Made by a program: the position numbers and the translations under genes
In this document: positions 4,264 to 56,987 of the stretch, piece by piece
How the letters are laid out: each line of letters starts with the position of its first letter
How positions within the stretch are numbered: the first letter of the stretch is position 1
Assembly: GCA_965220605.1 (NCBI GenBank)
Contig: CBDCQM010000005.1
Span: 729,565-793,564, forward strand
Direction: 5' to 3'
Length of the DNA: 64,000 nucleotides
DNA from: Dehalococcoidia bacterium
GTDB taxonomy: Bacteria; Chloroflexota; Dehalococcoidia; Lucifugimonadales; UBA3495
The notes under the pieces: generated by a model
The model's database searches: none
Seen by the model: the letters and a program-made list of their open reading frames with translations, nothing else
What the model was told of the DNA's origin: nothing

Positions 4264-4426
4264 CAGAGCTATCGCATATGAATTGCAACCCCGTCACTCC
4301 GGCGAAAGCCGGAGTCCAGAATGTGCGGGATGCCGGATTTTTGGATGCTAACTGCCTGGTTCGGCCACTGGATTCCGGCTTTCGCCGGAATGACGGACAT
4401 TACCCCGCTCCTATGCGATTGCCCTG
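4264..4426. mobile_element. MITE, B-ended family (CAGRGCWATCGCAT ends, twin hairpin core)
   Basis: cagagctatcgcatatg...gtcactccggcgaaagccggagtccag...ctggattccggctttcgccggaatgac...tatgcgattgccctg. Flanked by a short direct repeat, (g)ccgcgg. Confidence 0.7.
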
Positions 4427-5173: not shown

Positions 5174-5665
5174 CTACCCTTCGACCGGATTTCCAAATTT
5201 CGAATACAGCGCTTCCGCCACATTGGGAGGAACCATCTCCCTGATGTCTCCGCCTAGCCTGGCAACCTCCTTCAAAAGACTGGCGCTCACAAAGACAAAG
5301 TCCTGTGAGGTCATAAAGCAGACCAGGTCCACTTCGGGCTCCAGTTTGCTGTTCATGAAGGCCATCTCGAATTCGTACTCAAAGTCGTAACCGCTGCGCA
5401 GGCCCCGGACGATTACCCCCGCGCCTATCTCTCTCGCGAAGCGGACCGTCAGTCCCGAGTACTTGACCACTCTCACGTTCGACAGATGCGAACTTGCGTC
5501 TTCAAACAGCGCGACCCTCTCATCGGTGTCGAACAGCAGACTCTTCGATGGAGTGTCGTAAACTGCAACGACAACCTCGTCGAACAGCCGCGAAGCTCGC
5601 GCCGCGATGTCCAGGTGCCCCACGGTGACCGGGTCGAAGCTACCCGGGTAGAGTGCAGTCACCAT
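5174..5665 (-). CDS. coaD: Phosphopantetheine adenylyltransferase
   Basis: MVTALYPGSFDPVTVGHLDI... is the canonical CoaD N-terminus (T/HxGH motif). 163 aa. Confidence 0.9.
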   Translation of the reverse strand: MVTALYPGSFDPVTVGHLDIAARASRLFDEVVVAVYDTPSKSLLFDTDERVALFEDASSHLSNVRVVKYSGLTVRFAREIGAGVIVRGLRSGYDFEYEFEMAFMNSKLEPEVDLVCFMTSQDFVFVSASLLKEVARLGGDIREMVPPNVAEALYSKFGNPVEG

Positions 5666-5713
5666 GCCGGTTCAGCCATCCGTCCGTGTTTTTGAGTGTA
5701 TTTCACTGTCTTC

Positions 5714-6277
5714 CTAGTTCCGGTCGTCAGGTTCATTCCGGTAGAAGGACACCGCGTTGTCGCCATACTGGCGGAATACGACCCGCCGCAGGGTTCCGTA
5801 TGCCGCCCTGAGCTCCGTTTGCCTCGAATGCCCCGCGACCACCATTCCGTCGGCGGTCAGCAGGCGCTGCCGGCCGCCGATTGCCTCCATAACCTGGTGG
5901 AAGGCGCCCATGCGATACGGGGGGTCCAGCATGACCAGACCGTAGCCCCCGGGTAGCGCCGGGAGCGCCCTTGCAGCGTCGGCCTGCCGTACCTCGGCAA
6001 TGTCCCCGAAGCCGGTACTTACCAGATTGTCGCGCACTACCCCGGCCTGTCTCCGGTCTTTCTCAACGAAGTCGGCCCAGGCTGCGCCACGGCTCAGAGC
6101 TTCGATTCCGAGGCTGCCGGTCCCCGCGAAGAGGTCCAGCACGCGCCGGTCGAAGTACTGCTCTTCTTCCAGAATGTTAAAGATCGCCGCCCTTACGCGT
6201 TCGGTGGTGGGGCGAACGCCCGCTGTCGCCGCGCCCTTCAGGCGCCTGCCGCGGGCCTCCCCGCCGCCTATCCGCAT
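5714..6277 (-). CDS. rsmD: 16S rRNA (guanine966-N2)-methyltransferase RsmD-like
   Basis: RPTTERVRAAIFNIL, LDLFAGTGSLGIEALSRGA and the DPPY motif are present. The rsmD-coaD gene order is classical. Confidence 0.85.
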   Translation of the reverse strand: MRIGGGEARGRRLKGAATAGVRPTTERVRAAIFNILEEEQYFDRRVLDLFAGTGSLGIEALSRGAAWADFVEKDRRQAGVVRDNLVSTGFGDIAEVRQADAARALPALPGGYGLVMLDPPYRMGAFHQVMEAIGGRQRLLTADGMVVAGHSRQTELRAAYGTLRRVVFRQYGDNAVSFYRNEPDDRN

Positions 6278-18007: not shown

Positions 18008-18187
18008 GGCCGCGTCGTCAAATTGAGTTGCCGGACACGCGACGGTCCTTTTCCCGTCATTCCGGCGAAAGCCGGAATCCAGACGCGCTCTATACCGCAG
18101 AATGATTTGCCTGCGGAAAACCCTGGATTCCTCCTGAGCTCGCCGATGGGTTTCGCCGGAATGACGGGTTAATTTGACGATACACAC
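18007..18187. mobile_element. MITE, A-ended family (degenerate copy), abutting the mce stop codon
   Basis: gtcgtcaaattgag...gtcattccggcgaaagccggaatccag...(damaged second hairpin)...gaatgacgggttaatttgacgat. TA is present at both flanks (18005-06 and 18188-89). Confidence 0.7.
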
Positions 18188-22320: not shown

Positions 22321-22484
22321 GGGGGTGTCGTCAAATTAACTCGTCATTCCGGCGAAAGCCGGAATCCAGGGGTTTCCGCAGGCAAATCATTTTGCGGCGT
22401 AGAGCGAGCCTGGATTCCGGCTTTCGCCGGAATGACGGGAAAAGGACCGTCGCGTGTCCGGTAACCCAATTTGACGACACTCCC
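22321..22484. mobile_element. MITE, A-ended family, intact 164-bp copy flanked by TA
   Basis: TA|gggggtgtcgtcaaatta...gtcattccggcgaaagccggaatccag...ctggattccggctttcgccggaatgac...aatttgacgacactccc|TA. Confidence 0.8.
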
Positions 22485-28150: not shown

Positions 28151-28357
28151 CAGGGCAATCGCGTTATAACCGAATCGCCGCCTACTTGGCGCCAGAAATC
28201 TCTCCGGCACGCCGGAAGAGACCGTCATTCCGGCGAAAGCCGGAATCCAGAGCGTCCCGGAGCAGGCCAACTTTCCGGTAATCAAGGGTTATGGATTCCG
28301 GCTTTCGCCGGAATGACATTTGATGGGCAGGCAAAAGCTATAACGCAATCGTCCTAG
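28151..28357. mobile_element. MITE, B-ended family (longer variant) flanked by a 9-bp direct repeat gtcagatga
   Basis: cagggcaatcgcgttataacc...gtcattccggcgaaagccggaatccag...tggattccggctttcgccggaatgac...tataacgcaatcgtcctag. Direct repeats at 28142-28150 and 28357-28365. The right-hand copy contains the stop codon of the CoA-transferase gene. Confidence 0.7.
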
Positions 28358-37710: not shown

Positions 37711-37875
37711 CAGGGCTATCGCATATGGACAGTTTAGTCGCTGTCATTCCGGCAGAAGCCGGAATCCAGTGTCCTTAATCGTCAGTATCGTTGCGGAGAT
37801 CAAATGCCTTGCAATTACTGGACTCCGGCTTCCGCCGGAGTGACGGGGTTGCAGTTTTATATGCGATAGCCCCTG
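37711..37875. mobile_element. MITE, B-ended family, flanked by a perfect 10-bp direct repeat gcgagggggc
   Basis: gcgagggggc|cagggctatcgcatatgg...gtcattccggcagaagccggaatccag...ctggactccggcttccgccggagtgac...atatgcgatagcccctg|gcgagggggc. Confidence 0.8.
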
Positions 37876-51940: not shown

Positions 51941-53242
51941 ATGACTCAACAACTGTCCGAAGCCGAGTTGCTGGATCTGGCCCGGAAGTTCAGCTTTCGC
52001 AGCCGCATCGACAAGAACGTAGTCACCGGCCCCATCATGGTGTGGGGCCGAGGCTCGGTGGTGAGGGACGTCAATGGCAAGGAGTATCTGGACTTCAACT
52101 CCGGCCAGATGTGCGCCGCATTGGGCCATAACCATCCTCGCATAGTGCAGGCCCTGCACGAGAGCGGAGAAACCCTGATCCACAGCCACATGAGCATGTT
52201 CAACGACCGGGAAATCATCCTTGCCGCCCGGCTGGCGGAGATTTCTCCCCAAGGAATGAACCGCTCGATGTTCCTGACCTCCGGCAGCGACTCCAACGAG
52301 GCGGCGATGGCCATCGCCAAGCGCTACACCGGCGGGTACGAAATAGCCAGCCCCGCGGTCAGCTTCCATGGAATGAACGACAGCACCCGCGCTGTCACCT
52401 TCTCCGGCTGGCACGAAGGCTATGGCCCCTATGCCCCCGGTCATTACCCGATCATCGCCCCGTACCGCTACCGCTGCCGGTTCTGCAAAGACCGGGCCGC
52501 GTGCGACTACTCGTGCCTCGACACCAGTTTTGAGTTGCTGGACGCCCAGGCCGACGGGCCGCTGGCGGCAGTGATCACGGAACCTCTGTTCAGCGCTGGG
52601 GGCGTCATCGACCTCCCGGAGGGCTGGCTGGGGGAACTGAAACGCCGTTGCGAGGCCCGGGGCGCCCTGCTGATAGTGGACGAGGCCCAGACAGGACTGG
52701 CGAAGCTGGGAACCATGTGGGCATTTGAGCAGGAGGGCGTCGTTCCCGACATCTTCACGATCTCCAAGCACTTTGGTGGCGGAGTAGCCATCAGTGCGGC
52801 GATCACGACGGATGAGATCGAAGAAAAGGCGTCAGAATCGGGACTGGTGGTGGGGCACTCCCACTCCAACGATCCAATGCCCTGCCACGCCGCCATCGCA
52901 AGCATCGACATCATCCTGGAGGAGATGCTGACGGACGTAGCCCAGCGCATCGGCGACTACTGGCGGGAACACCTCGAACGGCTGGCGTCGCGCCACGAGA
53001 TCATCGGCGACATCAGGGGACGTGGGCTGCTGCAAGGCATAGAACTGGTCACCGATCGGGAGACCCGCGAGCCGGCCTACGCACAGGGCCGGGAGATAGG
53101 TCGCCGCTGCCTGGAAAACGGCCTGATAATGAGTGTTCGGCGCGCCGGGTCCGTGTTCCGCTTCGTTCCACCCTTCACCACCACCGAGGCGCAGATGGAC
53201 GAGGCCGCCGAGATTCTGGATGGGGCTATGGCTTCGATATGA
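51941..53242 (+). CDS. Class III (omega) aminotransferase
   Basis: 433 aa from ATG 51941 (AGGAGG upstream). ...LIVDEAQTGLAKLG...FTISKHFGGG... (PLP lysine context). Confidence 0.85.
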   Translation: MTQQLSEAELLDLARKFSFRSRIDKNVVTGPIMVWGRGSVVRDVNGKEYLDFNSGQMCAALGHNHPRIVQALHESGETLIHSHMSMFNDREIILAARLAEISPQGMNRSMFLTSGSDSNEAAMAIAKRYTGGYEIASPAVSFHGMNDSTRAVTFSGWHEGYGPYAPGHYPIIAPYRYRCRFCKDRAACDYSCLDTSFELLDAQADGPLAAVITEPLFSAGGVIDLPEGWLGELKRRCEARGALLIVDEAQTGLAKLGTMWAFEQEGVVPDIFTISKHFGGGVAISAAITTDEIEEKASESGLVVGHSHSNDPMPCHAAIASIDIILEEMLTDVAQRIGDYWREHLERLASRHEIIGDIRGRGLLQGIELVTDRETREPAYAQGREIGRRCLENGLIMSVRRAGSVFRFVPPFTTTEAQMDEAAEILDGAMASI

Positions 53243-53420
53243 TTGCCCTGACCATTGGAACCAGTTCTTTGGGGACGACCATTACGGTCTCGTCGTAGGT
53301 AATGAACGCCGTCTCGTCCTCTTCAGCGGCGGCGTCATCCGACTGATTCTCGTAGTGTTCCAAAACTTCCTTGACCCTGTGTGCATCCCATCCGGAAGGG
53401 TATTCGTTGGGATCTCTCAT
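53226..53420 (-). CDS. Small acidic antitoxin-like protein
   Basis: 64 aa. MRDPNEYPSGWDAHRVKEVLEHYENQSDDAAAEEDETAF... The ATG overlaps the stop of the upstream toxin-like frame (ATGA). The 3' end overlaps the convergent aminotransferase gene by 17 nt. Confidence 0.5.
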   Translation of the reverse strand: MRDPNEYPSGWDAHRVKEVLEHYENQSDDAAAEEDETAFITYDETVMVVPKELVPMVRAIISKP

Positions 53421-53873
53421 CGTCCTCGTCGTCTCCTCAATCGCCGACGGAAAGCTGCAAGAGCCGTACCGCTCAAGTCGTAAGCCGTTATGACGAATGC
53501 GTCGCCTGTTCCCGGGCCTGGCACGTAGATAACCCGAAGATACCTGTCGGCAGCGGTTTGTCCTATGACTATTCGTGAGTCATTTCGTCCGGGTCTATCT
53601 TCGGCAGCTTCTTCTAGGGAGTGTCGTCAAATTGAGCAACCAGACACACCACAGCCTTATTTCCGTCATTCCGACGAAAGCCGGAATCCAGAAAATCCGG
53701 CTGCCGCATGACGGTTTGGCTACGGAAACCTCTGGATTCCGGCTTTCGCCGGAATGACGGGTTAATTTGACGACACCCCCTAAGGCTTCAATCGCTTCTG
53801 ATTCTTCGACCCCGTGACGGAAAATATGCGGCAGTCCCGTCTCGGGGTCGATGTAAAAGCGTATACCCGACAT
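53417..53873 (-). pseudogene. Toxin-like gene (BrnT/DUF497- or DUF4258-like) split by a MITE
   Basis: The 5' part 53873-53781 encodes MSGIRFYIDPETGLPHIFRHGVEESEAIEAL. The 3' part 53614-53417 encodes EEAAEDRPGRNDSRIVIGQTAADRYLRVIYVPGPGTGDAFVITAYDLSGTALAAFRRRLRRRRGR*. Deleting 53617-53780 plus one TA joins them in frame (96 aa). Confidence 0.6.
53617..53780. mobile_element. MITE, A-ended family, intact 164-bp copy flanked by TA, inside the toxin-like gene
   Basis: TA|gggagtgtcgtcaaattgag...gtcattccgacgaaagccggaatccag...ctggattccggctttcgccggaatgac...aatttgacgacaccccc|TA. Confidence 0.85.
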
Positions 53874-53891
53874 TCACGAATGAGAGACGGA

Positions 53892-54380
53892 TTACCGAAC
53901 CCTGGTCGGCTCCTCGTCCCATGGCCCGGGCAGGCGGCCCTTGGCCGTTGCGCCGATCATGTACCGGCCGTCTTCGTGGCCCCACTCATCAGCCGGCATC
54001 TCGTAGGAGACCTCGATGCCGTTTCCATCCGGGTCCCGGATGTAGATGCCCACGGCGTGGCCGTGGTCGGAGACCGACTCGATGGCGATGTCCCTTTCCT
54101 TGATGCGGTAGTAGAGTTCCTTGAGGTCGTCGAGGCTTTCCATGTACCAGGCCATGTGATTGAGGCCCACCTGCCCCTTCTGGGGGCCGGGAGCATCTTC
54201 GCCCACCTCGACGAGGGCGATTTCGTGGGAATTGCCCATATCGGCGGTCATGAAGGCAGCCCGGCCCGGCCTCACTCCGTAGGTATGAAGTCCCAGCAGG
54301 TCTTCATACCACTGGCGGGAACGCTCCGCGTTCCGGACGTAGATATTGATATGCCCCAGCTGTCTCGGCTTATAGCCCAT
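53892..54380 (-). CDS. VOC/glyoxalase-dioxygenase family protein
   Basis: LGHINIYVRNAERSRQWY...HEIALVE...LNHMAW...HAVGIYIRDPDGNGIEV. 162 aa from ATG 54380. Confidence 0.8.
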   Translation of the reverse strand: MGYKPRQLGHINIYVRNAERSRQWYEDLLGLHTYGVRPGRAAFMTADMGNSHEIALVEVGEDAPGPQKGQVGLNHMAWYMESLDDLKELYYRIKERDIAIESVSDHGHAVGIYIRDPDGNGIEVSYEMPADEWGHEDGRYMIGATAKGRLPGPWDEEPTRVR

Positions 54381-54570
54381 AGCTCCCTCCTCATCCGGGA
54401 ATGAACTGTGATTCGCCTGATTGCAATGATGACCGTGATGGGGCCGCCCCGTCAATCATTCAATCACAAGAATCGCCCCCGCCGGTCATGCTGAGCTTGT
54501 CCAAGCATCAGACAAGGGGTTGAAAGACTGATATTATTGTCCCAGACGCGCCATCGAAAGGAGGCCCGGC

Positions 54571-55362
54571 ATGGTCAGGTTAGGCGGCACGGCAACAATC
54601 GCCCACCTCGAGGTGTTCCAGGGTCTGGAGAAGCTGTTCCGTCGGCGTGGCATCGAAATGGACTGGGTGCTGTACTCCGACTACGACGTCATGGTGGACG
54701 CATTCGTCGCGGGCGACATCGACCTGGCCTGGAACGGACCTCTGGGCTACGTCAAGATCAAGCGGCTCCTCGATGAGCCGTGCCAGGTCATCGCCATGCG
54801 CGACGTGGACATCGGTTTCACCACCCATTTCATAGCCCGGACCGGCTCCGGGATTGAAACGGTGGAGGACCTGAAGGGACGCCGGTTCGCCTTCGGCCGG
54901 CGAGCGTCGGAACAGGCGGGGCTGGTCCCTTACTACCTGTTGAAGCAGGTCGGCATCAACCCAGGCAGCGATCTCGCCGTAGCCAGCTTTTTCGAGCAGC
55001 GGCAGTCGGCGACCCGTTCGGACGAGCGCGACGTGGTCGAACGCGTGGCCTCCGGCGAGTTTGATGCCGGGTCGGTCAGCCAGCGGACAATGGAAACGAT
55101 GGCCGAAGACGGCAGCCTGCCGCGGGACAACGTGCGCATTTTCTATTCCAGTCCCCCGTACAGCCACTGCTGTTTCACGGCGCAGCGAAACCTGGAGCCG
55201 TCCCTCGCCCGTGAAATCGAAGAGGCTTTCCTCTCGGTGACCGGCAACGACGAAGTTGAGGAGGCGGTGCTGAAGGGCGAGGCCTGCAGCAGCTTCGTGC
55301 CGGGCATAGACACAGGGTGGGAACTGATCGAAGCTGCGGCAGTGAGCGAGGGGCTGGTCTAG
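54571..55362 (+). CDS. PhnD/SsuA-like type 2 periplasmic-binding-fold protein without a recognisable signal peptide
   Basis: ...DIDLAWNGPLGYV..., ...VEDLKGRRFAFG...SEQAGLVPYYLL... resemble phosphonate-binding PhnD. No hydrophobic N-terminus and no adjacent ABC genes. Confidence 0.6.
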   Translation: MVRLGGTATIAHLEVFQGLEKLFRRRGIEMDWVLYSDYDVMVDAFVAGDIDLAWNGPLGYVKIKRLLDEPCQVIAMRDVDIGFTTHFIARTGSGIETVEDLKGRRFAFGRRASEQAGLVPYYLLKQVGINPGSDLAVASFFEQRQSATRSDERDVVERVASGEFDAGSVSQRTMETMAEDGSLPRDNVRIFYSSPPYSHCCFTAQRNLEPSLAREIEEAFLSVTGNDEVEEAVLKGEACSSFVPGIDTGWELIEAAAVSEGLV

Positions 55363-56309
55363 GTCTCGCTGTCGCCGCTGGAGGCATTGCGCAGGATGTC
55401 TTCCAGCATGTTGTCCAGCGCGGGGTCGAGTTCCACGGCCGGTTCGAAAGGCGTGTAGTTGAAATCGGTGCGCGCGCGGTCGATCAGTTCCTTCGCCGTC
55501 GGGTTGGTGCTGCCGATCTTCTCCAACGTGTCCCGCAATTCCTGGGATTCGGCTTCGCCCAGCGACCGAAGTTCCGACAAGTCGAAGTCCAGGCTGAAGA
55601 TCGAATTGATTCGCCGCATGATGTCGTAGAACGAGCGGTGATCCCGGCTAATGCCCACGGGATCATTGTTGGAGGTCAGGAACGGATACATAGGCGCCAT
55701 GGCCCCAAGGCGGAACATCTCCACTTCCGGGTGCTGGAAGTGCGCGACGGTGATGAGGGCCATGCCTATCGTCGGCCCATTCCTGCTATTGGAACCGTAG
55801 TTTGAAAACCGCACGCCCAGCTTGTCCATCTCGGGCTTCATGCTGGCCTGGCTGTAGATGCAGCTGACGCTCCGCTCCATATCGGGCGGCGCGGCCCCGT
55901 TGTAGCCTTCGACGGCAACGGTCTGGGAGACTCCCAGCTGCTTGACAGCCTGGAAGAACGCGTCGGCGTACACATCCAGCCGGAACCACGGCTCCTCGCC
56001 GAGAAAGATGACCAGACCGTTTCCGGCGTCGAAGAAATTGTTTTCGCGCCGCATGTTGGTGTCGGGCAGCCCTTCCCGGTAGGCCACCCGCGGCCGGTAG
56101 GTATCATGGGTGCCCGGGACCTGGAACGGATAACAGAGTTTGGCGATTTCGGGCCCCATTGATCCAATACGACGGGCCTGGAGCTTCTCGATCAGGTAAC
56201 GAGGCAGGCCGCTGGAGATCTCGCCTCCGTCGGACCACTGGCGACGCCAGCCGGCAATCAGATAACGGGCGTCGGGGATGGACTGCAAGTCCAGCAGTTC
56301 GTCAGCCAT
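55359..56309 (-). CDS. PAC2 (proteasome assembly chaperone 2-like) family protein
   Basis: 316 aa from ATG 56309 (AAGGAG upstream). MADELLDLQSIPDARYLIAGWRRQWSDGGEISSG... The family call is from memory. The track ORF extends into the MITE. Confidence 0.6.
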   Translation of the reverse strand: MADELLDLQSIPDARYLIAGWRRQWSDGGEISSGLPRYLIEKLQARRIGSMGPEIAKLCYPFQVPGTHDTYRPRVAYREGLPDTNMRRENNFFDAGNGLVIFLGEEPWFRLDVYADAFFQAVKQLGVSQTVAVEGYNGAAPPDMERSVSCIYSQASMKPEMDKLGVRFSNYGSNSRNGPTIGMALITVAHFQHPEVEMFRLGAMAPMYPFLTSNNDPVGISRDHRSFYDIMRRINSIFSLDFDLSELRSLGEAESQELRDTLEKIGSTNPTAKELIDRARTDFNYTPFEPAVELDPALDNMLEDILRNASSGDSET

Positions 56310-56407
56310 CTGCCAACACTCCTTTAGCCAAACGGGCATCACCTGGAAAGAATCAGTAACTGTAATTCTGCCAGACGACCCGCTACAGCGCAAATCCGGT
56401 GAGAGCG

Positions 56408-56987
56408 CAGGGCTATCGTATATGGCCCATTTAAGCGCCGTCATTCCGGCGAAAGCCGGAATCCAGAAAACGCTAGGGAGTGTCGTCAAACTTGCACGTC
56501 ATTCCGGCAAAAGCCGGAATCCAGAAAACGCTAGGGAGTGTCGTCAAACTTGCACGTCATTCCGGCGAAAGCCGGAATCCAGAAAACGCTAGGGAGTGTC
56601 GTCAAACTTGCACGTCATTCCGGCGAAAGCCGGAATCCAGAAAACGCTAGGGAGTGTCGTCAAACTTGCACGTCATTCCGGCGAAAGCCGGAATCCAGAA
56701 AACGCTAGGGAGTGTCGTCAAACTTACACGTCATTCCGGCGAAAGCCGGAATCCAGAAAACGCTAGGGAGTGTCGTCAAACTTACACGTCATTCCGGCAA
56801 AAGCCGGAATCCAGAAAACGCTAGGGAGTGTCGTCAAACTTGCACGTCATTCCGGCGAAAGCCGGAATCCAGGGATTTCCGTAGCCAAACCGTCATGCGG
56901 CAGCCGGATTTTCTGGATTCCGGCTTTCGCCGGAATGACGGAAATAAGGCTGTGGCGCGTCTGGTTACTCAATTTGACGACACTCCC
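56408..56987. repeat. Composite MITE: B-type left end, 8 tandem 58-bp hairpin units, A-type right end
   Basis: Hairpin starts at 56440, 56498, 56556, 56614, 56672, 56730, 56788 and 56846 (period exactly 58 bp). The unit is gtcattccggcgaaagccggaatccagaaaacgctagggagtgtcgtcaaacttgcac, with only 2 variable positions. Ends with ...aatttgacgacactccc|TA. Confidence 0.85.

Follow-up and report, generated by a model that had tools for sequence, protein, structure and literature searches.

A miniature inverted-repeat element interrupts the toxin gene of a putative toxin-antitoxin module in a Dehalococcoidia bacterium

Results

An insertion in codon 31 splits a 96-codon gene

We analysed a 64,000-nt stretch of a Dehalococcoidia bacterium genome (assembly GCA_965220605.1, contig CBDCQM010000005.1, positions 729,565 to 793,564; hereafter the window), in which a miniature inverted-repeat transposable element (MITE) has very probably inserted at a TA dinucleotide in codon 31 of a 96-codon gene for a putative ribonuclease (RNase) toxin. 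The TA was duplicated, and the partner open reading frame (ORF) that follows, a putative antitoxin gene, was left untouched. Coordinates are positions in the window, the toxin locus is read on the minus strand, and the features of the locus are collected in Table 1. A preliminary description of this DNA placed one minus-strand frame from 53873 into the MITE at 53780 and a second frame ending at 53417, and the sequence bears out both. Codon 31 (TTA, 53783-53781) directly abuts the MITE end, GGGGGTGTCGTCAAATT, and neither half of the toxin gene contains an internal stop codon or a frameshift.

The insertion can be undone in silico. We joined the 5' and 3' pieces after cutting the element together with 0, 1, 2 or 3 extra bases, and among these four cuts only the removal of 164+2 nt gave an open frame, of 96 codons followed by TGA. 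The excision proposed in the preliminary description therefore holds: the frame and the Leu31 codon are restored only if the element and one TA are removed. The same 166 nt are what separates the window from uninterrupted relatives, since the sole large gap in a DNA alignment of the window with four such loci (L001-L004) spans 166 columns, exactly the element plus one TA. The frame rescue and the alignment gap together prove the TA duplication for the copy in the toxin gene, and most other copies of the MITE family are likewise flanked by TA on both sides.

Table 1. Features of the interrupted toxin locus and related MITE copies in the window.
Feature	Position	Strand	Remarks
Toxin gene, 5' fragment, codons 1-31 (MSGIRFYIDPETGLPHIFRHGVEESEAIEAL)	53781..53873	-	ATG at 53873; aligned to homologues
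TA target-site duplication, copy 1	53781-53782		Final two bases of the toxin 5' fragment
MITE, 164 bp	53617..53780	-	Terminal repeats 53617-53633 / 53764-53780; inner repeat 53663-53692 / 53731-53760
TA target-site duplication, copy 2	53615..53616	.	Frame restored only by removal of 164+2 nt; 166-column gap relative to empty sites
Toxin gene, 3' fragment, codons 32-96 and TGA (EEAAEDRPGR...RRRLRRRRGR)	53417..53614	-	
Present-day hybrid ORF, 92 aa	53595..53873	-	31 native and 61 MITE-encoded or out-of-frame residues
Acidic partner ORF, 64 aa (putative antitoxin), intact	53226..53420	-	3' end overlaps convergent aminotransferase gene
Glyoxalase-family gene, upstream	53895..54380	-	Ends 18 nt before toxin ATG; synteny anchor with empty-site loci
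MITE copy with same termini, 164 bp	22321-22484		
MITE copy with same termini, diverged	18008-18187		
MITE copy with same termini	56824-56987		

Homologues show that both halves come from a single gene. At E<=1e-3 the rebuilt protein finds 4,037 of them, and the top 120 are 92-119 residues long (nearly all 92-99), are 60-78% identical to it and cover 79-99% of the query. We examined whether homologues span the junction, and they do so without a gap: alignments of 19 and of 122 sequences contain no gap near it and run gapless through L31|E32. Leu31, whose codon is interrupted, is conserved at 96%, and E36, D37 and R38 just downstream are conserved at 99-100%. These junction-spanning homologues, together with the uninterrupted orthologues in syntenic positions described below, establish the split ORFs as parts of a single gene.

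The search for an uninterrupted allele in related genomes and metagenomes succeeded at several orthologous, syntenic loci. The window carries, in order, genes for a PAC2 protein, a phosphonate-binding protein, a glyoxalase, the toxin and its partner, an order confirmed with Pfam, and L001 (ERZ25069412) has the same arrangement with an intact 96-residue gene followed by a 64-residue gene. L002-L004, two TARA contigs among them, carry the same gene pair. Closer relatives are L006 (ERZ25069412 ctg852102), whose partner protein is 87% identical, and L040 and L041 (partner 76% identical), of which L041 is a 4.37-Mb contig and L040 comes from the same sample as the independent assembly L005 discussed below. 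These three loci also share with the window the convergent aminotransferase gene and a luciferase-like gene downstream, and they have an uninterrupted 96-codon toxin ORF with an ATGA overlap onto the partner. The site corresponding to the insertion reads GCC GTA GAG in L006, with a TA at the exact insertion position.

The rebuilt gene has evolved much like its intact counterparts. Its ratio of nonsynonymous to synonymous substitution rates (dN/dS) is 0.13-0.16 against L006 and L040, similar to the values among intact orthologues, and values of 0.1-0.2 apply to toxin and partner genes alike, the split copy included. This intact-like ratio and the lack of stops or frameshifts argue that most of the divergence arose while the toxin gene was functional.

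The close relatives differ in several further respects. The toxin of L006 (3714-4004), the closest orthologue with an empty site, retains all 96 codons but carries H20R, L31V, L57P and R87H at columns conserved at 96-99% among 120 homologues, and it may represent independent decay by point mutation in a sister lineage, with the partner intact. A gene of 185 codons for a Uma2-family (putative restriction endonuclease-like) protein lies between the glyoxalase and toxin genes in L006 (3085-3642) and in L040 and L041 (2083-2640); the window has no Uma2-family gene at this position, and L001 has an unannotated 185-residue gene (5519-6076) downstream of the pair. The surroundings of the module are thus rearranged among close relatives. 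In L006, L040 and L041, public annotation lists the overlapping 64-residue partner but leaves out the intact toxin ORF of 96 codons. Being uncalled, these toxins are absent from protein collections, so protein-level searches under-count the clade; an exact look-up of the intact toxin allele in the protein collection returned nothing, which is uninformative because the intact L006 and L040 toxins are absent from it too.

The inserted element and its family

The inserted element has the features expected of a MITE: it is small, non-coding and multi-copy, and has terminal inverted repeats. Its terminal repeats are 17 nt long with 16 of 17 positions matching (GGGNGTGTCGTCAAATT), and a repeat finder extends them to a 19-nt inverted repeat that includes the flanking TA, TAGGGAGTGTCGTCAAATT / AATTTGACGACACCCCCTA (53615-53633 / 53764-53782, 95%). 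The TA directly flanks both ends. The inner repeat is 30 nt long and 97% complementary, and as RNA the element folds into one long hairpin with a fold energy of -105.6 kcal/mol (z = -12.2). An Rfam scan of 53200-54000 gave, for the MITE stem, only sub-threshold matches to microRNA hairpins; the element does not belong to any known RNA family. Within 53100-54600, a promoter and terminator scan found neither a sigma-70-like site nor an intrinsic terminator in the MITE, and there is no evidence that it drives or terminates transcription of the antitoxin gene. Searching the literature for the sequence of the MITE or for the peptide motifs it encodes brought up nothing relevant.

The window contains 14 occurrences of the terminal repeat, where 0.16 would be expected, and 21 of the inner arm, where 0 would be. 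Three further copies have the same termini (Table 1), and the closest relative of the inserted copy is the one at 56824-56987, 3 kb distant and in the opposite orientation. A scan of genome contigs with a strict 44-nt MITE pattern gave no match; a relaxed pattern retrieved 28 stretches in GTDB representative genomes, all of them from Dehalococcoidia, SAR202 or Chloroflexota metagenome-assembled genomes. Pairs of terminal repeats are flanked by TA on both sides in 20 of 31 cases, and this is so for nearly every independent copy of about 164 bp.

A 2-bp TA duplication is a hallmark of IS630/Tc1-mariner elements. We propose that the 164-bp MITE, being non-autonomous, would have been mobilised by a transposase of this type acting in trans, and would have inserted at the TA within the Leu codon TTA. 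An autonomous element with matching termini was sought and not found: among terminal-repeat pairs 0.6-3 kb apart in the window and the 28 loci (each up to 8 kb), none encloses a transposase, and the long-range pairs enclose ordinary genes only.

Several observations concern the wider repeat landscape. An array at 56439-56872 consists of 7.5 copies of a 58-bp unit at 98% identity, each unit comprising one MITE terminal repeat, one arm of the inner hairpin and 'AAAACGCTA'. It runs straight into the complete 164-bp copy at 56824-56987 and looks like a tandem amplification of a MITE end. Two or more additional repeat families of the window differ in their termini (for example CCAGGGCTATCGCATATG; 4268-4425, 37712-37870 and 56410-56466, and also 28222-28319) and carry the same inner hairpin module, CCGTCATTCCGGCGAAAGCCGGAATCCAG, so MITE families seem to share this module or to exchange it. 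In another Dehalococcoidia genome (CBDBPP010000003.1, locus L025, 6475-7520), four copies of the same family form a regular array with a spacing of about 294 bp and identical flanks, which is a tandemly amplified MITE-containing unit.

Copies of the element also alter predicted proteins. ORFs that start or continue inside them gain peptide motifs such as 'FWIPAFAGMT' and 'SGESRNPE' (55359-56489, minus strand; 53595-53873, minus strand; L009 3568-4023). The 376-residue ORF at 55359-56489 (minus strand) is a PAC2 gene of 316 residues (55362-56309) with a spurious MITE-derived N-terminal extension. The exact 92-residue hybrid sequence at the toxin locus is absent from the protein collection.

The toxin is predicted to have a BrnT/RelE-like fold

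The rebuilt protein has a single Pfam match, to DUF4258 (PF14076), which covers residues 20-77, and hence the junction, and profile positions 12-71 of 71 with E = 4e-4. Among close aligned relatives, 18 of 19 match DUF4258 at E<=0.01, the best at 2e-8, and many database homologues bear a precomputed PF14076 tag, some of them marked weak or faint. By its profile match, the protein is DUF4258-like and sits at the edge of that family. The DUF497 profile (PF04365) does not match the rebuilt protein even at E<=10, the toxin family profile finds no BrnT chain at E<=1 and nothing meaningful among PDB sequences, and neither NCBIfam nor PADLOC has a match for toxin or partner.

An AlphaFold2 model built from 118 sequences has a predicted local distance difference test score (pLDDT) of 93.8 and a predicted template modelling score (pTM) of 0.84. 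It begins with a short strand, followed by helices at residues 16-20 and 24-32, four core strands (34-39, 45-50, 56-63 and 70-77) and a C-terminal helix (80-94). A Foldseek search of the PDB with this model ranks Brucella BrnT (3u97) first, with a probability of 1.00, a TM score of 0.70 and a root mean square deviation of 3.1 Å over 83 columns at 22% identity. The next matches are 7vd7_A, the toxin of a Salmonella toxin-antitoxin complex, and HigB2, RelE and YoeB; a literature search on the PDB code 7VD7 returned nothing. The model thus points to a small alpha/beta protein of BrnT/RelE (BECR-like) fold and a putative RNase toxin. The preliminary description had likened the protein to BrnT/DUF497- or DUF4258-type toxins, and that likeness is borne out, DUF4258 being the sole sequence match, below threshold, and BrnT the best structural one.

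One conserved site is suggestive of function. H20 is conserved at 99% within an R19-H20-G-V motif. A Lys-His pair is needed for the toxicity of both BrnT (K16/H17) and Mycobacterium tuberculosis RelS (K9/H10) (PMC13284704), and by analogy, as opposed to alignment, R19-H20-G-V may correspond to the Lys-His catalytic pair of BrnT, making H20 the probable catalytic histidine. DUF4258 has been listed as a BECR-fold toxin family whose activity is given as unknown, without reference (Gerdes 2025, PMC11980606), and a 2026 preprint places it in the BECR fold's colicin-like branch, with boundaries that overlap Ntox49 (bioRxiv 10.64898/2026.08.28.747851).

A 15-nt inverted repeat lies in the 5' coding region of the toxin gene (53806-53820 / 53837-53851). 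Conservation as an RNA or operator element was considered and rejected: across 65 family members, pairing extends to a mean of 8.2 of the 15 positions, and changes at third codon positions are not compensated.

Toxin and partner form a two-gene module

The toxin gene is the first of a pair. Its TGA (53419-53417) overlaps the ATG of the partner (53420-53418), which gives the ATGA overlap onto the 64-residue acidic gene noted in the preliminary description (53417-53420). A GAGGA sequence lies just 5' of the partner ATG and is encoded within the Arg-rich tail of the toxin. The toxin profile retrieved 80 metagenome loci in which to survey the pairing; 77 were testable and 3 were on contigs that end too early. 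A partner homologue lies directly downstream on the same strand in all but one of the testable loci (76/77), and 65 of these 76 pairs are in the 4-nt-overlap position. The ATGA overlap is also present in L001-L004, L006 and L040. In four distant loci (from the L035-L039 set) the partner again lies directly downstream although the flanking genes are wholly unrelated (type I restriction-modification; DnaJ/Wzy; IMPDH/ParA; HIT/acyl-CoA dehydrogenase). Viral contigs yielded no relative of the toxin.

Pairing of toxin and partner is therefore near-obligate. The genes also have the generic features of type II systems, being small, adjacent, co-oriented and coupled, and the pair is conserved across unrelated neighbourhoods. 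To judge from gene content and order, it behaves as a mobile, toxin-first, two-gene module resembling toxin-antitoxin systems, with toxicity and neutralisation both putative. The protein of about 65 residues that starts from the ATGA overlap, acidic and helical, would be the antitoxin that neutralises the RNase toxin. Toxin-first order is also found in BrnTA, HigBA, MqsRA and RelSI (PMC13284704).

The partner is a less familiar protein. When it and the rebuilt toxin were run against Pfam, the toxin returned DUF4258 only and the partner returned nothing; nor do its 111 relatives (112 members in all) match any Pfam or NCBIfam family. A profile search gives at least 7,975 matches, all annotated 'hypothetical', from Nitrospirota, Acidobacteriota and other phyla, and an exhaustive phmmer search gives 863 clusters at 50% identity. 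The partner model has three helices and moderate confidence (pLDDT 78, pTM 0.40), and a fold search with it against the PDB found no match. Pfam and NCBIfam searches detected no helix-turn-helix, ribbon-helix-helix or AbrB domain. The 18 nt between the glyoxalase gene and the toxin ATG leave no obvious room for an operator. Within the partner family, some proteins have the antitoxin-like domain duplicated internally, in full or in part; P0125 (163 residues) has two copies about 70 residues apart, and P0128 has 90 residues.

Consequences of the insertion and alternative explanations

With the insertion, the toxin breaks off after residue 31 of 96 and the reading frame changes, so that a functional toxin could not be made; the model's four core beta-strands and its C-terminal helix all fall in the lost part. 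Loss of toxin function is thus predicted as firmly as sequence analysis allows, in agreement with the inactivation suggested earlier. The partner gene was also correctly described as intact, at the level of its ORF and leaving expression aside. Ribosomes that start at 53873 now stop at 53595, 175 nt before the partner ATG, so coupling by termination and reinitiation would be lost. Since the GAGGA just upstream of the partner ATG is retained, independent initiation is plausible. The RNA hairpin of the MITE could impede transcription or attract processing.

Two alternatives concern the insertion itself. Repeat elements often cause misassemblies, and the short-read Logan contig L123 (SRR22586459) starts inside the MITE, so the junctions might be chimeric or the halves might come from different genes. 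This explanation is effectively refuted. The independent assembly L005 (ERZ23495066, SAMN17524316) contains the whole element and both junctions with a difference of 1 nt, and L123 has the same MITE/toxin junction; an insertion shared by three assemblies is not an artefact, and thousands of homologues span the junction in addition to the uninterrupted syntenic genes. A reversible switch, in which precise excision restores the toxin and the locus is phase-variable, would account for the clean halves, for the perfect frame obtained once the element and one TA are removed, and for the near-perfect terminal repeats. We regard it as very improbable, however. The L123 sequence differs at 5 positions in 470 nt, so the insertion is common to strains about 1% diverged; it is present in all three assemblies of the lineage, for which no empty-site allele was found, no cognate transposase occurs in the window or in the fetched loci, and excision would have to remove exactly 166 nt.

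A further alternative accepts the insertion and reassigns the module from an addiction or stress role, either to an orphan toxin-immunity cassette of the polymorphic-toxin kind, with an Ntox49-like nuclease and its immunity protein or to an abortive-infection pair; the MITE would still knock out the nuclease. The overlap of DUF4258 with Ntox49 and its colicin-like placement within the BECR fold (bioRxiv 10.64898/2026.08.28.747851) would suit such a cassette, as would a partner without a DNA-binding domain, which is also typical of immunity proteins, and one distant copy sits within a type I restriction-modification locus. On balance we consider it unlikely, since the toxins are free-standing proteins of 92-98 residues that begin at a start codon of their own and lack a delivery domain, the toxin-first order with ATGA overlap fits BrnTA, HigBA and RelSI, there is no PADLOC match and no toxin relative on viral contigs, and the best fold matches are type II toxins.

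Several points nevertheless weigh against our preferred reading, a MITE-disrupted toxin gene in a type II-like module. The rebuilt protein scores 21.0 bits against a DUF4258 gathering cut-off of 25 bits, and the literature contains no experimental report for any member of the toxin or partner family. With no recognisable DNA-binding domain, Pfam match or PDB fold, the partner seems unlike the classical type II antitoxins that regulate their own operons. Assignment of the MITE to the IS630/Tc1-mariner superfamily, drawn from the TA duplication alone, is provisional because no autonomous partner was found in the DNA searched. Finally, the toxin may have been weakened before the insertion. The window encodes Asp at codon 54 (GAC, about 53548-53546), adjoining the invariant R55; Gly occupies residue 54 in 97% of 120 homologues and in every close orthologue, and this G54D change could be a weakening mutation that predates the insertion, or later drift.

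Discussion

Inactivation of the toxins of toxin-antitoxin systems by mobile elements is common and well known, so the event described here is in itself ordinary and unsurprising. What the locus adds is precision. A filled site and several empty sites are available together, which provides base-pair-exact proof of how this MITE family from Chloroflexota transposes: the target is TA, 2 bp are duplicated, and the limits of the element are known exactly. The locus also has implications for annotation: we propose that it be recorded as a toxin pseudogene, disrupted by the MITE, next to an orphan antitoxin, and neither the 92-residue hybrid ORF nor MITE-encoded motifs (...IPAFxGMT...) should be called proteins.

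The module itself is abundant. At 90% identity, the toxins fall into more than 4,000 clusters and the partners into about 8,000, in Chloroflexota, Nitrospirota, Acidobacteriota and others. An unnamed module that combines a DUF4258-like toxin of BrnT fold with an unannotated acidic partner is a good candidate for experimental characterisation as a toxin-antitoxin system. Tentatively, it may stand for a very large, uncharacterised, toxin-first family whose antitoxin fold has no solved relative and no DNA-binding domain, so that neutralisation or regulation could be non-classical, and whose orphan antitoxins are perhaps kept for a function of their own. The toxin has been lost to a MITE here and carries H20R and L57P in the sister locus L006, and the antitoxin is intact and under purifying selection, which hints that orphan antitoxins are retained. 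If so, an orphan antitoxin would have its own function, for example anti-addiction against incoming copies.

The element and the module can each be compared with known systems. Some bacterial MITEs, the 'Nezha' elements of cyanobacteria among them, duplicate TA and are derivatives of the IS630/Tc1-mariner superfamily. The element described here resembles them in being short, non-coding and multi-copy, with terminal inverted repeats, a strong hairpin and a 2-bp TA duplication. It differs in that no matching autonomous insertion sequence was present in the DNA searched, in that copies were seen only in Dehalococcoidia, SAR202 and Chloroflexota, and in that its inner hairpin module recurs in two or more other repeat families of the window, whose termini differ.

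Among two-gene systems, DUF4258 modules provide the sole Pfam match to the toxin, but those catalogued by Gerdes (2025, PMC11980606) are antitoxin-first with MqsA-type fusions, whereas the module here is toxin-first with an unrelated acidic partner. RelS-RelI of M. tuberculosis (Rv2663-Rv2664, PMC13284704) is similar in placing a BrnT-like toxin before an antitoxin that has no structural homologues. RelI, however, has a putative helix-turn-helix that the partner lacks, the likeness is a general one in which no sequence relationship was found, and the RelS target, the 3' end of 16S rRNA, is not transferable to the toxin described here. A further parallel is BrnT/BrnA of Brucella abortus (3u97), which also encodes a small toxin first and an antitoxin directly downstream, and whose toxin is the best fold match. 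Differences from it are the missing DUF497 sequence match, the long Arg-rich C-terminal helix of our toxin (residues 80-94) and a partner with no Pfam match and no BrnA-like ribbon-helix-helix domain. As judged from profile searches, the toxin is not a DUF497/BrnT protein by sequence and falls marginally within DUF4258, and the partner is not BrnA-like. Overall, the locus would work like a type II toxin-antitoxin module of the BrnTA type or of the RelE superfamily, with its toxin knocked out by a MITE.

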